This document shows, piece by piece, positions 1-10,782 of a stretch of 32,000 bases of DNA. Made by a program: the position numbers and the translations under genes. Origin of the DNA: Pyrodictium abyssi (GTDB lineage Archaea > Thermoproteota > Thermoprotei_A > Sulfolobales > Pyrodictiaceae). Positions within the stretch are counted from its first letter, which is position 1, and each line of letters starts with the position of its first letter. A model generated the notes under the pieces. That model was not told where the DNA came from. It saw nothing but the letters and a program-made list of their open reading frames with translations, and ran no database searches. The stretch is taken from the NCBI RefSeq assembly GCF_036323395.1, contig NZ_AP028907.1, positions 1,830,001-1,862,000 of the forward strand, in the 5' to 3' direction.

Positions 1-178
1 GGCTGTAGGGTAGGCCGAGGACCCTAACGTATACTTCTACATCAGATATGTCTGATACCATACCGTGACACCCTTTGTTGCCCGGAGGCTGCCTCGGAGG
101 GGCGTATAGGGGTTCTCTCGCCCCCGGGGTATCCGTCGGGCTGCCGGGATAGTTGTGTGTCCCTGTGTTCTGCTGAGT

Positions 179-1706: not shown

Positions 1707-2084
1707 CTAGCCTCCCGCGCCTCCCTGTTTACCTAGCGTGAGCCGCGTCTGCAGCTGCTTAATCTCCTGGGCGAGCTTGTCGAGCTGTTTCTTGATCTCG
1801 TCCTCCTGCTTCTTAAGCTTCTGGAGCCTTAGCTCGAGTATCTCTAGCCTATCCTTGAGCTCCTGGACCACCTTGCCGCGGTCCACGCGTACGAGTATGT
1901 TGGCCTCCATGCGGTATACCGGGGCGTCTTCCCCGGCTTCCTCTAGGAGCTTTAGGACCTTCTGCGTCTCAGCTATCTCGCTCTCAACCGCTACACGCTC
2001 CTGAGCTATCCTCGCGTACTGGGCCTGAAGGCTCTGGAAGCGTGTGAGCTTGTTTTCGAGCTCCGGCGGTATACGCTGCGCCAC
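1707..2084 (-). CDS. pfdB: Prefoldin subunit beta
   Basis: 125-aa coiled-coil protein. LTRFQSLQAQYARIAQERVAVESEIAETQKVLKLLEE...VYRMEANILVRV...LEILELRLQKLKKQE is the typical prefoldin beta layout. GTG start lies 2 nt after the Pcc1 stop. Confidence 0.9.
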   Translation of the reverse strand: MAQRIPPELENKLTRFQSLQAQYARIAQERVAVESEIAETQKVLKLLEEAGEDAPVYRMEANILVRVDRGKVVQELKDRLEILELRLQKLKKQEDEIKKQLDKLAQEIKQLQTRLTLGKQGGAGG

Positions 2085-2341: not shown

Positions 2342-2915
2342 AGTCCACTACACCTGCTATACGTAGTAGCGGGCCGCAGACTCTGCCCGTGCTACAGCGG
2401 AACTCCACCTCAGCGATAGAGCTCCTCCCCTTATCAAGGACAGCGACCACGTCGAACCGGTCAAGAGCCTCGCCGTAGTCTATAGCTATGCTTGCAAGCA
2501 GGGTCCTGGCGAGTATATCCGCGAGACGATGAAGCTCGTCGCCGGCTGCCGGCGGCACGTATACGCCAAGGCTCTGGGCTCCATAGGCCCGCTGCGCGCC
2601 CGGCGTCTCGCGGGAGAGCCGTACACCCTCCAGCATTATACGCGCCATGAGCCTCAGCTCTAGACTAGGGGGCTCAAGAGGCTCATAGACATGCAGTGTA
2701 CCGGGATTACCCTTCCACACCGACACCACTATCACGCGCTGTGCCCCACGCGCTACTGCCTCGTAGTACAGGTCGCGTAGCGTAGCCTTGCCGCGTGTCA
2801 GCTTTTCTGCGCCCGGCAGAACTGATACCAGGTCCTTAACGAAGCTCCTAACACGCTGCGTGGGCCTATGGGATGTCGTCACTATTATGCGGGTCCTCCT
2901 AGCCGCGGCAGGCAA
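2265..2915 (-). CDS. Brix-domain ribosome biogenesis protein (Imp4-like)
   Basis: 216-aa ORF. RIIVTTSHRPTQRVRSFVKDLVSVLPGAEKLTRGKATLRDLYYEA...VIVVSVWKGNPG is a typical archaeal Brix domain. Apparent TTG start. Confidence 0.85.
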   Translation of the reverse strand: MPAAARRTRIIVTTSHRPTQRVRSFVKDLVSVLPGAEKLTRGKATLRDLYYEAVARGAQRVIVVSVWKGNPGTLHVYEPLEPPSLELRLMARIMLEGVRLSRETPGAQRAYGAQSLGVYVPPAAGDELHRLADILARTLLASIAIDYGEALDRFDVVAVLDKGRSSIAEVEFRCSTGRVCGPLLRIAGVVDYDAGLRLHKAKGPLREASSGAGKGS

Positions 2916-6648: not shown

Positions 6649-7380
6649 CTAGGCACCAAGTTTTTCTAGGAACTTTTGGAGCTCCTCTTTAGACAGTTTT
6701 CTGAATTTCTGCGTCTCGGAGTCAACTATGCCTACCTCTAGCGTCTCAGTCGTAGGCTTGCCCTCCATGACCGAAGCGACCGCCTTCATTCCAAGCAGTA
6801 TCGCGTCCTCTAGCTTCATGTCGTCGCGGTACTCTCTCTGCAGCACCTCTATCGCCTGGCCACCGCCCTGCCCTAGGCCGTGAGCCTTGTAGCTTATGTA
6901 CTGGCCGCTTGGCTCAGCAACGTATAGTTTAGGCCCAGTGTCATCCACGCCAGCTATCATGAGGGTTACGCCGAAGGGGCGGACACCGCCATGCTGCGTG
7001 TAGACCTGCATCAGGTCGCATATCTGGCGGGTCAGGTACTCTACAGGTATCGGCTCCCCGTAGACGAACCTGTACTGTACCGCTAGGAGCCTAGCATAGT
7101 CTATCAGTATGCGTCCGTCGCTGCCGAACCCGACGAAGCCTGCACCTATATGACCATCCACCATGTAGACCTTCTCTAGCTGGCTAATGTCTATTAGTGG
7201 GCTTGTCTTCCTCTTCTCCGCTACTATAACCACACCATCCACTGCGCGGACCCCGACCATGGTCCAGCCGCGCTTGGCAGCCTCCATGGCGTACTCTACT
7301 TGGAAGAGACGGCCGTCCGGCGAGAACATCGACGTAGAACGGTCATACCCCATCATCGCTGGCGGTGCGGGGAACGACAC
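6649..7380 (-). CDS. psmA: Proteasome subunit alpha
   Basis: 243 aa. GYDRSTSMFSPDGRLFQVEYAMEAAKRG is the alpha-subunit signature. The longest ORF starts at GTG 7380; an ATG (MMGYDRS) at 7356 is equally plausible. Confidence 0.96.
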   Translation of the reverse strand: MSFPAPPAMMGYDRSTSMFSPDGRLFQVEYAMEAAKRGWTMVGVRAVDGVVIVAEKRKTSPLIDISQLEKVYMVDGHIGAGFVGFGSDGRILIDYARLLAVQYRFVYGEPIPVEYLTRQICDLMQVYTQHGGVRPFGVTLMIAGVDDTGPKLYVAEPSGQYISYKAHGLGQGGGQAIEVLQREYRDDMKLEDAILLGMKAVASVMEGKPTTETLEVGIVDSETQKFRKLSKEELQKFLEKLGA

Positions 7381-7426
7381 TGTGCGTCACACCCTCCAAG
7401 CCGTGAGCATAGACACATACCTAAGC

Positions 7427-7433
7427 ATAAAAA
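7427..7433. promoter_or_regulatory. TATA-like element (TTTTTAT on minus / ATAAAAA on plus)
   Basis: The only AT-rich box between psmA and the structured region. It lies ~47-53 nt upstream of psmA GTG 7380 on the minus strand and ~40 nt upstream of the first strong helix (7472) on the plus strand. Orientation is not resolvable by eye. Confidence 0.35.
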
Positions 7434-7471
7434 GCCTTATCTGAGCCACAATAACCAGCTGGAATACGCAT

Positions 7472-7731
7472 GGGCCGGTGAAGAAGAGTCCGAAAACCGA
7501 GAACCGGAGAGAATGGCTATGCGGAGTCTTCTCGCCCCAGAGGCCCGCTTCTCCACGATGAGCGCCAAGGCGCCGCGAAACCCGGATAACCTTCTCCTGC
7601 TCTCTAGTGCTCTAATCGGGCCTCTCGGGTGCCACCGGGCCCCAGACAGCCCCGAAGCCCTGGGGCTGTGGCCTGGGGATGAAGGGGCTCTGCGCGCCGG
7701 AACAACCATACCCTGGCGCTTATTCTTGACC
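7472..7731 (+). ncRNA. Candidate structured non-coding RNA, family unassigned (weak RNase P RNA CR-I/CR-V-like motifs)
   Basis: No credible ORF on either strand. Strong helices: 7482-7492 with 7522-7532 (10/11 bp), extended by 7477-7480 with 7533-7536 and 7472-7476 with 7542-7546. A perfect 9-bp alternative pairs 7539-7547 with 7617-7625. A 14-bp hairpin spans 7640-7678 and a 7-bp hairpin spans 7694-7719. RNase P-like strings: GAAGAGUCCG (7483-7492), GAUGAAGGGGC (7678-7688), GGCGCUUAU (7715-7723). Strand and ends are uncertain. Confidence 0.35.
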
Positions 7732-7773
7732 TCTATACCTAGGGCTACATGATGGAGGAACGGGATAAGCGCT

Positions 7774-7831
7774 GTGATGAGCGCGTCCTTCGTGTAGAGC
7801 AAAGGCGATGACTTGGAGGCCCCATTACTGA
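7774..7831 (+). ncRNA. Weak C/D-box sRNA candidate
   Basis: Canonical C box GUGAUGA (7774-7780) and D box CUGA (7828-7831), 58 nt overall. Internal C'-like CGAUGAC (7806-7812). No clean D' box, a 15-nt C'-D spacer instead of ~12, and only a 2-bp terminal stem. Confidence 0.2.
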
Positions 7832-7864
7832 GCATACTGCATTGACGCTGGAGGGGCGTTAGGC

Positions 7865-8527
7865 ATGCCTGCTGGCATCGAGAGAAGGGTTGTACAAGCG
7901 CTTCGGAGGCTGACTAGGAGGCGTAGCTGTGTCTCCGTGGCCGAGCTAGCTGCAGAGGCGCGTCTCACGCCAAGCGATGTACATAGAGCGCTAGAGGTGC
8001 TTGAGCACAGGAAGCTGGTAGTCGTCTCAGGCGACAAGGTTTGCTATATAGGCGGCGCGCTGGATGAGCAGGCTCATGTTATTGGGCGGGAGCTGCGCCG
8101 TGTACTGGACGAGGCCAGGTCTAGAAGGAGTATAGTAGCCTCCGTCTACGAGGTGGAGCGTAGCCCATTACGAGTCGTGGTTATAGTGAGGCGGGATGGG
8201 GTTGTTTTTGCTGTCCTTCCCGTGACTGGTAGGGAGCCTGCTGAACGGCTAGTAGGTTTAGCTAGAAGGCTTGCCCGGCTAGCCCGCCGCATAGCAGAGC
8301 AAGGCTGCAACGAGTTCTGCGTAGACCGCATTACTCCCCGGCTGGTTGTTCCCGTGCTAGCGTCTGACTATGGCGCGCCAAGGCTCATAGAGGGTGTCTT
8401 GTTCCGGCCCGCAAGGGGCCTACTCAACCTCATAATCGAGCCTGGGGCTGCGCTTTCTGACCCGTTTGTCCGTGTCTATGAATGCAACCGTCAAGCTAGA
8501 CGAGAGGAATCTCAATATATCGAGTAG
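7865..8527 (+). CDS. Hypothetical protein with N-terminal winged-helix DNA-binding domain
   Basis: 220-aa ORF with an ATG start. The N-terminus (VVQALRRLTRRRSCVSVAELAAEARLTPSDVHRALEVLEHRKLVVVSGDKVCYI) looks like a MarR/TrmB-type wHTH. I do not recognise the ~150-aa C-terminal domain. The 3' end overlaps thiI convergently by 32 nt. Confidence 0.6.
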   Translation: MPAGIERRVVQALRRLTRRRSCVSVAELAAEARLTPSDVHRALEVLEHRKLVVVSGDKVCYIGGALDEQAHVIGRELRRVLDEARSRRSIVASVYEVERSPLRVVVIVRRDGVVFAVLPVTGREPAERLVGLARRLARLARRIAEQGCNEFCVDRITPRLVVPVLASDYGAPRLIEGVLFRPARGLLNLIIEPGAALSDPFVRVYECNRQARREESQYIE

Positions 8528-9662
8528 CTGTTAGCTCTACTATACCCTCTATCTTCGCGTACTCCCTAGCCAGCTTATCCGGGTCAGCGCGTGTAGCGAC
8601 AAGCCCGCGCGCCAACTGACAGTACTCCTTAGTCCTGGCAGCCTCCTCGTAGACTCCTATACGCCTTGTAAGAGATACTATCTCCTCCTTATCGAGCCCA
8701 GCTAGAGGCCTTATCAGCGGAACCTTTAGCGGATGCGCCCTTGCAAGAGCATAGAGGTTCTTCAGCGTCTGGCTCGAGACTTGGCCCACGCTTTCGCCCG
8801 TGTATACGGCGTCATAGCCCATTGCTAGAGCGAACTTCTCTGCCACAACATACATCGCTAGCCTTAGGACTATCTGCGCATAGCTATTATCGACCATACC
8901 TGCTATAGCAGCCGTGACCGGGCGGAAGTCGAAAACATAGAGCCTCGGACGGTAGCCGTAGAGCCAGAGCCTGGCAAGCTTCTTGCCTACACGTAGAGCA
9001 TCTGCTATCGAGAGTGGCGAGGCTAGCACGTAGTGTACTAGGTCTACCTCGATACCCCTCTTTGCAGCCATCCAGGCTGCTGCCGGCGAGTCGAGGCCGC
9101 CAGAAAACAATACTATAGCTCTACCCTCAACACCTATTGGCAGGCCGTCGGGGCCTCGGCGCATCTCCCGGTATACATAGGCTTTACCACCCCTAATCTC
9201 GACGAATACTTCTACTTCCGGGTTCTCCAGGTCCACACCAGCAGAGAGAGGGTAGAGAGCCGCTCCAATCACGCGTGCAGCATCGAGACTCGTAAACTCT
9301 TCAACTCCGCTCCTTCTGGCACGCACTGCGAACTTCTTGCCACGGACCCACTCGCCTGCTATTTCCTTTACACGCTCTGCTAGGTCATCTAGACTCTTGT
9401 ACCTCACTAGGTGGGCTACAGTAGCGCCATGTATCCCGAAGACCCTGGACAGTGTGTCCACGGCCTTCTCCAACGCATCATAGTTTCTACAGCCCGACAC
9501 GTACAGCCTAGCCGCTTCTATCCATACATCACTGCATTCTACACCTTCGCGCCTAAAAGCGTCAACAATGTTCTTTACGAGCCGCCGCTCGAAACGCGGT
9601 CTCGTGCGGTCCGACTTGAGTACGATCTCTCCCGCGATACTCGCGAGCACTACCGTGTCCAT
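8496..9662 (-). CDS. thiI: tRNA 4-thiouridine / thiamine sulfur transferase ThiI (THUMP + PP-loop, no rhodanese domain)
   Basis: 388 aa. N-terminal ferredoxin-like/THUMP region, PP-loop VLFSGGLDSPAAAW, and TGESVGQVSSQT motif. It ends ~90 aa short of rhodanese-containing bacterial ThiI. Confidence 0.9.
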   Translation of the reverse strand: MDTVVLASIAGEIVLKSDRTRPRFERRLVKNIVDAFRREGVECSDVWIEAARLYVSGCRNYDALEKAVDTLSRVFGIHGATVAHLVRYKSLDDLAERVKEIAGEWVRGKKFAVRARRSGVEEFTSLDAARVIGAALYPLSAGVDLENPEVEVFVEIRGGKAYVYREMRRGPDGLPIGVEGRAIVLFSGGLDSPAAAWMAAKRGIEVDLVHYVLASPLSIADALRVGKKLARLWLYGYRPRLYVFDFRPVTAAIAGMVDNSYAQIVLRLAMYVVAEKFALAMGYDAVYTGESVGQVSSQTLKNLYALARAHPLKVPLIRPLAGLDKEEIVSLTRRIGVYEEAARTKEYCQLARGLVATRADPDKLAREYAKIEGIVELTATRYIEIPLV

Positions 9663-9722
9663 ACTGCCCCCGGGTCCTAGTCCGGAGGCCTAGAGCCCCT
9701 TCTTTACTTGACCTAGGCCAGC

Positions 9723-10529
9723 CTAGCCGCATTTACAGTCCTTGCGCGGCCTAAGCTCTATCTTCATTATATCCATTGTGTAGGCGTCCACCACTATCAT
9801 TTTGCCCTTATTTACTTCACCCATGCCGGTTACTAGCTTCATGAGCTCTGTCACAGCTATAGAGCCTACTAGGGCTACAATGGGGCCTACAGCTGGTATC
9901 TTTGAGGGAGACTTCAGCGAAGAGGGGAGGAGGCAGCGGAGGCACGGCGTCTCGCCGGGTATCACTACCACTACTTGCCCCTCGAACCCGTATATTCCTG
10001 CATGTATGTAGGGCTTGCCAGCCCTGTACGCGGCCTCGTCTAGAAGGAATCGCGTCTCCCAGTTGTCCAGCCCATCAATTACTATGTCTACCTGCCTAAC
10101 CAGCTTATCCACATTATCCTCTGTTATCCTCTCAGTAACCGGAACTATCTCGACATTGGGGTTAAGGCGCCGAAGCTTCTCCGCAGCCGAGATAGGCTTT
10201 GGCTTACCTATATCGTCGGTCCAGTGGAGGATTTGGCGGTTTAGATTAGTCTCCTCAACAGTGTCCCCGTCGACGAGTACGAGTTTACCGACACCGAGTG
10301 CGGTAAGGTACAACGCCTCGAATGAGCCGAGGCCTCCTACTCCCGCCACCAAGACGCTAGTCTTTTTCAGCTTCTTCTGTCCCTCGGTCCCGAAGAGGAG
10401 GAGCTGGCGTTCATACCGCAGTAGCTCGGCAGGTGTAAGCTCAACATTATCCAGTGAGCGTTCACTCATACCGTATCCTCTCCTCCATGCAGTTTGTATC
10501 GCGTCTGGTGCACTGCATGACAAGGGCAC
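9723..10529 (-). CDS. ThiF/MoeB/HesA-family E1-like adenylyltransferase
   Basis: 268 aa. RYERQLLLFG, Rossmann loop VLVAGVGGLGS, and zinc site CLRC ... CKCG. The longest ORF starts at GTG 10529; ATG (MSERSL) at 10469 is the likelier start. Confidence 0.88.
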   Translation of the reverse strand: MPLSCSAPDAIQTAWRRGYGMSERSLDNVELTPAELLRYERQLLLFGTEGQKKLKKTSVLVAGVGGLGSFEALYLTALGVGKLVLVDGDTVEETNLNRQILHWTDDIGKPKPISAAEKLRRLNPNVEIVPVTERITEDNVDKLVRQVDIVIDGLDNWETRFLLDEAAYRAGKPYIHAGIYGFEGQVVVVIPGETPCLRCLLPSSLKSPSKIPAVGPIVALVGSIAVTELMKLVTGMGEVNKGKMIVVDAYTMDIMKIELRPRKDCKCG

Positions 10530-10782
10530 GTGGGCCCAGAGGCCCGTGATGCGCCGTACACACTAGACGCGAGGCCGCCGCGCGACAGCATTCAGAGCCT
10601 ACTACGCTGTGGACACCGGGTACAGCGTGTCCCTGCACGGTTGCTTTGAACGTTTACACGGCCGCTACAAGACCGGGTTTATTCCTCTAGTGTCGCAGCG
10701 GTCGGATCGTCGTGAGATCTTCATTGCATAGGCACTCTACCTCTGTCTGGGACGGCGTCCTCATCCCGCCGGACCGTTAGTA

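Follow-up and report, generated by a model that had tools for sequence, protein, structure and literature searches.

The 484-nt divergent intergenic spacer between psmA (minus strand) and a downstream winged-helix gene (wHTH, plus strand) very probably holds a plus-strand cluster of guide-RNA genes. Judged from the sequence and its relatives, two elements, B1 and B3, would be archaeal C/D box sRNAs with methylation guides for 23S rRNA; a kink-turn hairpin, B2, lies between them (Table 1). The window, meaning the whole 32-kb stretch of DNA that was analysed, was compared with related loci, which are cited here by number. The spacers of relatives are otherwise unalignable, yet they hold conserved blocks, and B1, B2 and B3 emerge as three separable plus-strand blocks from nine Pyrodictiaceae sequences, the window included.

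Table 1 Features of the spacer (window coordinates) and predicted guide sites in 23S rRNA.
Feature	Position	Strand	Sequence or remark
psmA promoter and probable transcription start	7402..7434	-	TATA-like CTTTTTAT 7427-7434; transcript-like contigs from ~7402
B1, putative C/D box sRNA gene	7472..7546	+	terminal stem GGGCC 7472-7476 / GGCCC 7542-7546
B1 box C	7478-7484	+	GTGAAGA
B1 D' guide	7485-7496	+	AGAGTCCGAAAA
B1 box D'	7497-7500	+	CCGA
B1 loop	7501-7518	+	variable
B1 box C'	7519-7525	+	ATGCGGA
B1 D guide	7526-7537	+	GTCTTCTCGCCC
B1 box D	7538-7541	+	CAGA
B2, hairpin with kink-turn-like internal loop and 3' tail	7618..7710	+	
B2 5' flank	7618-7635	+	GGGCCTCTCGGGTGCCAC
B2 stem, 5' strand	7636-7643	+	CGGGCCCC
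B2 AGA	7644-7646	+	
B2 apical hairpin	7647-7668	+	
B2 clade-specific insertion	7669-7677	+	
B2 GAU-GA-A	7678-7683	+	
B2 stem, 3' strand	7684-7692	+	GGGGCTCTG
B2 tail	from 7693	+	CGCGC...; ACA 7702-7704, AUA 7708-7710
B3, putative C/D box sRNA gene	7768..7838	+	
B3 box C	7774-7780	+	GTGATGA
B3 D' guide	7781-7794	+	GCGCGTCCTTCG(TG)
B3 box D'	7795-7798	+	TAGA
B3 loop	7799-7807	+	
B3 box C'	7808-7814	+	ATGACTT
B3 D guide	7815-7827	+	GGAGGCCCCATTA
B3 box D	7828-7831	+	CTGA
Downstream winged-helix gene	7849..8527	+	GGAGG 7849-7853, ATG 7865; Pfam HTH_IclR, HTH_20, MarR_2
Predicted site of B1 D guide	G2056, duplex 2052-2063		E. coli numbering
Predicted site of B1 D' guide	C2606, duplex ~2604-2613		E. 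coli numbering
Predicted site of B3 D' guide	A52 or G54, duplex 48-61		E. coli numbering, domain I
Predicted site of B3 D guide	G121, duplex 117-129		E. coli numbering, domain I

The spacer and its flanking genes

The spacer is without credible ORFs. This agrees with a preliminary description of the sequence, which had called positions 7381-7864 ORF-poor and proposed that this non-coding stretch carries RNA genes; the general proposal holds. Coding potential was rejected, as the loops of relatives differ in length by amounts not divisible by three and the relatives have no ORF in common. The loop of B1 alone ranges from 6 to 25 nt among the nine sequences, which rules out coding. Searches for a tRNA or tmRNA found none, exact-product look-ups for the wHTH protein and a 132-aa antisense ORF returned no matches, and the literature on Pyrodictium sRNAs or RNase P RNA held nothing relevant.

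The DNA is that of a Pyrodictium: its psmA gene is 98% identical to that of a P. delaneyi MAG. Identical psmA is present in four independent Logan contigs (SRR31753160/166/167/176). All four start 22-23 nt before the psmA start codon and 31 nt past TTTTTAT, and the TAAAAAG box of the psmA promoter is kept in relatives. We infer that these runs are RNA-seq; the transcript-like data they supply consist of contigs of the psmA operon only.

Box D of B3 ends 33 nt before the ATG of wHTH with no A/T-rich box between (window, L005, L010-L012), and the winged-helix gene is probably co-transcribed with the sRNA cluster. The short distance, the lack of a separate promoter box and the stability of the local hairpins would also suit an mRNA leader, and archaeal mRNA leaders with L7Ae-bound kink-turns are known. 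The whole stretch would then serve the wHTH mRNA only, as a long, structured 5' leader or cis-regulatory element whose kink-turns allow L7Ae-dependent control of translation, with no sRNAs acting in trans. This is very unlikely: (i) B1 and B3 also occur in loci of different synteny (L008, L036 and L014, the last with an inverted B3); (ii) L016 has the wHTH gene and a 156-bp spacer but no B1 or B3 match in the examined stretch; (iii) the guides are the most conserved part and match rRNA as well as published guides; (iv) the helices are without covariation. A lineage-specific sRNA and a leader of the wHTH gene had both been offered as alternatives in the preliminary description. Co-transcription with the wHTH mRNA is compatible with the C/D sRNA reading and is no substitute for it.

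Boxes, guides and helices of B1 and B3

Motifs, spacing, conservation pattern and complementarity to archaeal 23S sequences point to C/D box guides for both elements. The B1 architecture, with both spacers exactly 12 nt, is present in all nine Pyrodictiaceae sequences. Box C reads NUGANGA in eight (AGGAGGA in L008), box D' reads CNGA in seven, C' follows RUGNNGA and box D is CNGA throughout; the window copy has the variant boxes GUGAAGA and CAGA. Position 5 of box C and position 2 of box D, the 3b.3n pair of the kink-turn, co-vary in B1 as U.U, A.A, G-C or C.C. The terminal stem is 5 bp in the window and contains an invariant GCC/GGC, and one of its pairs is altered on both sides among relatives. 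A strict double-motif regular expression matched twice in the 32-kb window and not once in 100 shuffles.

B3 is likewise kept in the nine sequences, the copy in L014 lying on the opposite strand, and the boxes GTGATGA...CTGA are found in the window and most relatives. B3 departs from the canon in several respects: D' is YRGA after 14 nt in 7/9 sequences, C' is weak (AUGAC-like) and the D spacer is 13 nt (12 in L014). Its terminal stem has 3-7 bp in L005, L008, L014 and L036 and only ~2 bp in the window. A C-box-like ATGATGG at 7750, used by the Rfam sR33 alignment, was dropped as box C, since L005 has TGGATAG there.

No Rfam family reached its gathering threshold in the window or in 13 related loci. 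The best sub-threshold matches were to snoU6-53 (18.6 bits, threshold 36) and sR28 (14.5 bits, threshold 39). Every sub-threshold match of B1 and B3 was to a C/D family; for B3 these were sR33 and sR19 in the window and sR28 and sR19 in L012.

The preliminary description had rested on helices stronger than chance, and the strings that it quoted are found where it placed them. As it described, AGAAGAGTCCG (7482-7492) pairs with CGGAGTCTTCT (7522-7532) at 10/11 positions, the GGTG/CGCC and GGGCC/GGCCC pairings extend this helix, and AGAGGCCCG (7539-7547) forms a perfect 9 bp with CGGGCCTCT (7617-7625). Excess stability holds for three hairpins folded alone (z = -3.1 for 7472-7546, -3.3 for 7640-7678 and -2.9 for 7694-7719, against dinucleotide shuffles and in windows picked post hoc). 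It does not hold for the 484-nt region as a whole, which is not more structured than shuffles (z = -1.1 on the plus strand, -0.3 on the minus strand). The 75-nt hairpin is present and locally stable; its pairing, however, joins box with guide sequences and shows no compensatory change. In eight homologues the columns of the main 11-bp helix, mostly invariant box or guide positions, are 77% pairable and no pair is altered on both sides. The 7-bp hairpin at 7694-7719 loses 2/7 pairs in the closest relative, L005, and L010-L012 lack any counterpart of the stretch 7700-7770. Compensatory changes between clades are confined to the 7640-7678 hairpin. By these comparisons, the conserved feature is box motifs and guides, not strong helices, and the argument from structure was misleading.

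A rival reading, built on the RNase P hypothesis of the preliminary description, takes the region for an RNase P RNA, perhaps reduced, with GAAGAGUCCG as CR-I and a P4 closing onto GGCGCUUAU downstream. The strings do resemble CR-I and CR-V, and in many archaea the psmA operon also carries RNase P protein genes. Kink-turns, too, are features of archaeal RNase P RNAs (PMC5499556). We nevertheless regard the assignment as extremely unlikely. With permissive filters, no Rfam RNase P family was matched even at E<=10 in the window or the 13 related loci, and the RNase P covariance models gave no listed match on 7250-7950 or on L012 3590-4000. The CR-I-like GAAGAGUCCG is the end of a box C and the start of a methylation guide, a guide that stands in the same register in IHOsR06 and Sac-sR13. 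Another CR-like string, GAUGAAGGGGC, is the bulged strand of the kink-turn-like loop of a separate element, B2. Neither the CR-V-like GGCGCUUAU nor the 3' strand of the proposed P4/P2 pairing (7713-7731) is conserved: both are confined to the window and its closest relative, where the CR-V-like string is altered (GGCGCTTAT is GACACTTAT in L005), and 7700-7770 is absent from other relatives. No conserved P4 formed by CR-I and CR-V strands within one contiguous conserved RNA was found. The blocks are instead independent, B2 being absent from 4/9 sequences and B3 inverted in L014, and the spacer upstream of psmA is only ~130-160 bp in L009, L013, L015 and L016. The likeness to archaeal RNase P RNA (Rfam RNaseP_arch, RNaseP-T) is limited to short strings and a kink-turn-like motif.

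Predicted targets in 23S rRNA and published guides

Complementarity was tested on eight archaeal 23S sequences, Thermoproteales-like and other, which stand in for that of Pyrodictium. A metagenome scan with the predicted target supplied one rRNA operon, L167, among 120 chance matches. Seven further archaeal 23S loci were reached through spurious ORFs antisense to 23S, none of them from the SRR317531xx runs; at least L206 and L210 have a PTC sequence of the Pyrobaculum/Thermoproteus type.

The B1 D guide is complementary to GGGCGAGAAGAC at 12/12 positions in all eight sequences, the match in L167 being partly circular because that operon was found with a pattern built from this guide. The remaining three guides form 9-11 contiguous pairs at homologous conserved sites in this non-cognate set, those of B3 at 48-61 and 117-129 (E. 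coli numbering) of the proxy 23S. Mismatches fall at positions that vary among rRNAs, and variation in the guides parallels variation in the rRNA: the L014 form GGTCCCATTG fits AAUGGGACCUC, and the form CCGCG... of L007, L010 and L014 fits ...GACGCGG. When the longest perfect run was compared with shuffles, the B1 D and B3 D guides stood out (reached by 4/500 and 1/500 shuffles) and the B1 D' and B3 D' guides did not (143/500 and 140/500). The best run of the B3 D guide (12 nt) falls within a protein gene, evidence that 12-mers do arise by chance.

Published, RNA-seq-detected sRNAs (PMC4644070) carry corresponding guides. Ignicoccus hospitalis IHOsR06 and Sulfolobus acidocaldarius Sac-sR13 have AGAGTCCGA / GAGTCCGAC in register with the B1 D' guide AGAGTCCGA, and Nanoarchaeum equitans NeqsR02 has GTCTTCTC in the register of the B1 D guide. 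Ignicoccus IHOsR96 and IHOsR449 hold CGCCCTTCG, again in the register seen here, and IHOsR96 is identical to the 5' half of B3 at 21/26 positions. The archaeal C/D box sRNAs of Dennis et al. 2015 (PMC4644070) share with B1 and B3 the C/D'/C'/D layout, guides of 12 nt, a box C to box D span of 52-71 nt and, by prediction here, double 23S guides and targets in the PTC hotspot. They differ in that none listed combines guides for 2056 and 2606, or for 50-61 and 117-129, and the window copies have the variant boxes noted above and, in B3, spacers of 14 and 13 nt.

We propose that in each sRNA boxes C/D would form a kink-turn and boxes C'/D' a K-loop, to which L7Ae and afterwards Nop5 and fibrillarin would bind. 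Both single-stranded spacers of an sRNA would pair with 23S rRNA, and fibrillarin would methylate the 2'-OH of the nucleotide that faces guide base five, counted upstream from box D or D'. G2056 and C2606, the predicted B1 sites, belong to the peptidyl-transferase loop. As the B1 targets lie on two sides of helix 73 and the PTC central loop, B1 may double as a folding chaperone; double guides that bridge opposing strands of rRNA helices, and PTC hotspots, have been described (PMC7994747).

B2 and the organisation of the cluster

B2 is present in only 5/9 sequences (window, L005, L010, L011, L012), and two compensatory changes in its apical stem separate the clades. The loop agrees with the kink-turn consensus in L010-L012 (3-nt bulge, tandem G.A/A.G); in the window clade the bulge is 12 nt long instead of 3 nt. 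Two assignments were discarded. As a C/D sRNA, B2 has no terminal C/D boxes at the required spacing (CTCGGGT occupies the expected box C site in the window), and as a classic H/ACA sRNA it allows neither a pocket nor a lower stem to be drawn.

The kink-turn hairpin is probably another L7Ae-binding sRNA, for which the best candidate class would be the atypical H/ACA-like guides, represented by Pyrobaculum PyrR210 (Bernick et al. 2012) and by Sulfolobus islandicus sR148 and others (PMC11077068). Like them, B2 is one kink-turn hairpin that lacks both lower stem and pocket; its 3' tail is single-stranded, and 4/5 copies have an ANA box at ~14-15 nt. The likeness is one of architecture only, and the kink-turn is disrupted in the window clade.

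On this tentative assignment, B2 would bind L7Ae and Cbf5-Nop10-Gar1 and guide pseudouridylation by pairing its 3' tail, and perhaps its 5' flank, with rRNA. The consensus kink-turn of L010-L012 sits above a stem of 7-8 bp, the tail being single-stranded, and the 5' flank and the CGCGC of the tail are conserved. ACA stands 14 nt past the stem in L011 and L012 and AUA 15 nt past it in the window and L005, within the H/ACA ruler of 14-16 nt. The L012 copy aligns end-to-end with PyrR210, a Pyrobaculum H/ACA-like sRNA, but at only 14 bits against a threshold of 59 (E ~1). In Sulfolobus, atypical H/ACA-like RNAs are proven guides, some with a 3' guide only (PMC11077068). Against pseudouridylation, the ANA box is absent in L010, and the 9-nt insertion of the window clade breaks the 3-nt bulge and makes possible a long alternative helix, CCCCAG/CUGGGG. 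Between the two clades the tails have only CGCGC in common, and the comparison spans five sequences from just these clades. The proxy rRNAs yielded no convincing target, whether bipartite or for a 3' guide alone; 5' and 3' guide models and GCGCGU gave only weak or chance matches there.

It is also possible, and again doubtful, that B2 is a relic or accessory without guide function: either a third C/D sRNA decayed to its C'/D'-type core, or a spacer whose kink-turn aids the loading of L7Ae on the precursor. A box D-like CAGA, a hairpin and a box C-like GGAUGAA have the exact C'/D' topology, the would-be guide positions pair with each other, and B2 is missing from 4/9 loci that keep B1 and B3. 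Sulfolobus sR666 offers a parallel, as a kink-turn hairpin without guide regions that binds L7Ae and Cbf5 (PMC11077068). Nevertheless, a terminal C or D box is lacking at the expected 12-nt distance. Sequence and pairing are kept between two clades whose surrounding spacer is unalignable, which argues for selection.

The cluster as a whole would probably be transcribed from the A/T box common to psmA, or from internal boxes. The transcript would read through into the wHTH mRNA and then be trimmed to protein-protected sRNAs. Clusters of two or three C/D genes, and their co-transcription with flanking ORFs, are described in work from 2017 reviewed in PMC7994747. The spacer likewise has two sRNA genes within 360 bp on one strand, the second of them separated from a start codon by 33 nt that contain no promoter box. 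It differs from those clusters by a third, non-C/D kink-turn element between the genes in part of the family. That B2 is a working H/ACA-like pseudouridine guide, acting through its 3' tail between two C/D guides in one transcription unit that runs into the mRNA of a transcription factor, seems rather unlikely. If true, it would extend the atypical H/ACA-like class from Pyrobaculum and Sulfolobus to Pyrodictiaceae, and would constitute an archaeal polycistron that mixes C/D with H/ACA RNAs.

B1 and B3 are very probably ordinary, so far unannotated genes of a known kind, whilst B2, a candidate for the poorly surveyed atypical H/ACA-like class, has an uncertain role. Naming B1 and B3 clears the false lead of a missing RNase P RNA. 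Hyperthermophilic archaea have few RNA gene families as large as the C/D box sRNAs, most of which nevertheless lack annotation; Rfam finds none in a 32-kb window that would hold at least three. As another double guide with targets flanking helix 73 at the peptidyl-transferase loop, B1 fits the chaperone idea. The guides predict at least four 2'-O-methylations in regions of the Pyrodictium 23S rRNA that are central to its function.

Separate conserved units in the psmA/wHTH spacer

Spacers upstream of psmA in Pyrodictiaceae were compared by BLASTN and MAFFT. The spacer between psmA and the winged-helix (wHTH) gene is mostly unalignable apart from three blocks (B1, B2 and B3), conserved roughly to the degree of psmA coding DNA. 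The psmA product places the window in Pyrodictium, with 98% identity to its P. delaneyi MAG counterpart against 74-88% to those of other Pyrodictiaceae. Four relatives (L009, L013, L015 and L016) have a spacer of just ~130-160 bp from which B1, B2 and B3 are all absent, and in the Pyrodictiaceae MAG L014 (558-666) B3 has the reverse orientation and converges on B1, their 3' ends lying ~10 nt apart. Since B2 is confined to a subset, the short spacers lack every block and L014 carries the inversion, the blocks vary independently and are separate units, not one large RNA.

Features of the locus and predicted 23S rRNA sites of its guides (E. coli numbering)
Feature	Position	Strand	Remark
psmA (proteasome alpha subunit)	6649-7380	-	head of SBDS-Rrp4-Rrp41 operon
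Divergent psmA/wHTH spacer	7381-7864		
B1	7474-7548	+	conserved in 9/9 sequences with long spacer
B2	7618-7697	+	conserved in window, L005, L010, L011, L012 only
B3	7771-7834	+	conserved in 9 sequences
wHTH gene	7865-8527	+	
Third C/D box sRNA candidate	10702-10764 (within 10695-10770)	-	upstream of ThiF ORF
B1 D guide			predicted G2056; duplex 2052-2063
B1 D' guide			predicted C2606; duplex ~2604-2613
B3 D' guide			predicted A52 or G54; duplex 48-61
B3 D guide			predicted G121; duplex 117-129

The preliminary description had suggested that the spacer might encode RNase P RNA. Rfam gave zero matches at gathering thresholds in the window and 13 related loci. At E<=10 the window gave chance-level matches only, none of them to RNase P, SRP or H/ACA families; two, at 7745-7826, are to C/D box families of archaea. 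The RNase P reading is rejected, as it has no Rfam match and the conserved blocks are separate units. Every string and pairing quoted in that description is present where it was placed. The helices said to exceed chance do so for three hairpins folded alone (z ~ -3 against dinucleotide shuffles), but the whole 484-nt region does not stand out (z = -1.1 on the + strand, -0.3 on the - strand).

The wHTH gene is followed by a ThiI-like (THUMP + PP-loop) and then a ThiF/MoeB-like gene (8496-10529, - strand), an order also kept in L005, L007, L012 and L016. In L009 and L015 the ThiI-like gene lies directly before psmA, and the wHTH gene and sRNA cluster are missing.

C/D box sRNA genes

B1 is a C/D box sRNA of canonical form. 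Each of the nine copies has a terminal stem (GCC(G) at the 5' side, GGC at the 3' end) and spacers of 12 nt before both D' and D. Box C is NUGANGA (AGGAGGA in L008), box D' is CNGA in 7/9, box C' is RUGNNGA and box D is CNGA; the D'-C' loop is 6-25 nt long with no conserved sequence. Columns without variation are the box GA dinucleotides together with both spacers, GAGTCCGAA and TCTTCTCGCC. The kink-turn 3b.3n pair, formed by box C position 5 with box D position 2, co-varies as U.U, A.A, G-C and C.C among the copies of the window, L005, L007, L008, L010-L012, L014 and L036; C'/D' follows the same trend. A regular expression requiring the two motif pairs as well as the two 12-nt spacers has two matches in the 32-kb window, one of which is B1, and 0 in 100 dinucleotide shuffles.

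The ~75-nt hairpin of the preliminary description consists of the end of box C and the D' guide of B1 paired with the end of box C' and the D guide. In eight homologues the hairpin remains 77-88% pairable, but no pair of the main helix has changed on both sides, and nearly all columns are fixed for another reason. Such invariant pairs are uninformative either way, so the strength of the hairpin is no evidence of functional structure.

B3 is a second, less regular C/D box sRNA. It reads GTGATGA, GCGCGTCCTTCG(TG), TAGA, loop, ATGACTT, GGAGGCCCCATTA, CTGA, with spacers of 14 nt before D' and then 13 nt; its terminal stem is weak in the window and 3-7 bp long in L005, L008, L014 and L036. Sub-threshold Rfam matches of B1 and B3 from L012 are all to C/D families (snoU6-53, sR47, sR39, sR28 and sR19; E = 0.15-4). 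The C/D identity of both blocks is well established.

The third candidate reads ATGAGGA, CGCCGTCCCAGA, CAGA, loop, ATGAAGA, TCTCACGACGAT, CCGA, and is conserved in L005, L007, L009, L012, L016 and L036. The D' guide is identical (12/12) to that of Ignicoccus IHOsR410. Of the D guide, 11/12 positions match 23S 2589-2600 (E. coli), immediately 5' of the site targeted by B1 D'.

Predicted targets in 23S rRNA

The B1 D guide was expected to pair with GGGCGAGAAGACCC, in the A2058 region of 23S rRNA. Complementarity was judged on eight non-cognate archaeal 23S sequences, none from Pyrodictium. The first was fetched by scanning metagenome contigs for GGGCGAGAAGACCC itself; one of the 120 matches was an archaeal rRNA operon, matched exactly at the predicted site. 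Seven further loci were reached via spurious ORFs antisense to this 23S. At least 38 protein clusters (P0001-P0038) are such annotation artefacts, antisense to archaeal 23S domain V. The proxy metagenomic 23S (L167, 9575-14102) is 4.5 kb long with two insertions resembling homing-endonuclease introns, whose long ORFs measure 200 and 175 aa; its 16S gene is oversized (1850 nt).

The B1 D guide matches at 12/12 positions in 8/8 sequences, the first of which was fetched by that same target. For the three other guides the best matches lie at conserved sites that are homologous: UCGGACUCU within GAGACAGGUCGGACUCUACC, GAAGGACGCG close to the 23S 5' end and GAAUGGGGCUUCC 65 nt downstream of the GAAGGACGCG site; mismatches fall at positions variable among rRNAs. 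When longest perfect runs were compared with those of shuffles on the non-cognate rRNAs and flanks (57 kb), B1 D (4/500) and B3 D (1/500) alone exceeded chance, and the longest B3 D run is a chance 12-mer within a protein gene.

Sites were placed on E. coli 23S numbering and the N+5 rule (PMC7994747) was applied. The exact methylated nucleotides are predictions. Positions 2052-2057 and 2611-2616 are the two opposing strands of helix 73, whose G2057-C2611 pair closes the central loop of the peptidyl-transferase centre. With targets on both strands of this helix, B1 would be a bridging double guide, like Nanoarchaeum sR15 and sR17 (PMC7994747).

Archaeal sRNAs detected by RNA-seq (Dennis et al. 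2015, PMC4644070, supplement) lend independent support to these assignments. The D' guide of IHOsR06 (AGAGTCCGACCC) and the D guides of Sac-sR13 (TGAGTCCGACTA) and NeqsR02 (GTCTTCTCTACT), each followed by box CTGA, are in the same register as the window guides. IHOsR449 likewise has a guide in common with the window sRNAs, in register with theirs as counted from box D or D', and IHOsR96 (GTGAGGAACGCGCCCTTCGTGGGGA) shares 21/26 positions with the 5' half of B3.

Among Pyrodictiaceae, guide variants track rRNA variants. L014 has GGTCCCATTG, which over 11 nt fits 23S of the AAUGGGACCUC type; the variant CCGCG... fits ...GACGCGG. In the B3 D guide of L014, GGTCCC replaces GGCCCC, fitting the AAUGGGACC variant.

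The B2 hairpin and probable expression of the cluster

In L010-L012 the fold of B2 runs through CGGGCCCC, AGA, the apical hairpin, GAU-GA-A/G and GGGGYCUG. A 3-nt bulge and tandem G.A/A.G beside a G-C-closed stem match the kink-turn consensus, and two compensatory changes distinguish the apical stems of the two clades. The topology is that of C'/D', with no terminal C or D box at the required distance, and there is neither a pseudouridylation pocket nor a lower stem; B2 is thus neither a C/D nor a classic H/ACA sRNA. It may be an atypical H/ACA-like pseudouridylation guide, a type proven to act in Sulfolobus and whose distribution elsewhere has been called unexplored (PMC11077068). Over its full length the L012 copy can be aligned to PyrR210, the Rfam family of Pyrobaculum H/ACA-like sRNA, through stem, kink-turn, apical hairpin and a ~15-nt tail ending in ACA, at only 14 bits (E ~1). 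The ruler of 14-16 nt accommodates ACA of L011 and L012, 14 nt past the stem, and AUA of the window and L005, 15 nt past it; L010 has neither. Against this reading, the tails of the two clades have only CGCGC in common, a 9-nt insertion in the window clade widens the bulge to 12 nt and permits a competing CCCCAG/CUGGGG helix, and target searches in proxy archaeal rRNAs gave no convincing site. B2 is probably an L7Ae-binding element, whichever its class.

Four independent Logan contigs (SRR31753160, 166, 167 and 176; psmA-SBDS-Rrp4) carry a psmA identical to that of the window and start at a common base, 22-23 nt upstream of the psmA start codon and 31 nt downstream of TTTTTAT. We infer that these data are RNA-seq, seemingly of this very organism; the shared start is probably the transcription start of the psmA operon (~7402, - strand), with its TATA box at 7427-7434. 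Every relative has an A/T-rich box ~25-55 nt before B1, which in the window is psmA's box on the other strand. From box D of B3 to the wHTH start codon there are 33 nt holding only GGAGG (window, L005, L010-L012), so the wHTH mRNA probably begins inside the sRNA cluster or before it. The 9-bp pairing of the preliminary description (7539-7547 with 7617-7625, AGAGGCCCG/CGGGCCUCU) is perfect. It connects B1, at its box D and terminal stem, with the 5' flank of B2, and its core of 5-6 bp (GAGGC/GCCUC) is retained in L010-L012; it could have a role in a common precursor, or be due to chance.

For archaea, C/D genes are described in groups of two or three, as are their co-transcription with neighbouring ORFs and trimming to the RNP-protected core (PMC7994747). 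The psmA/wHTH spacer contains two unannotated, ordinary C/D methylation-guide genes for 23S rRNA and a conserved kink-turn hairpin.
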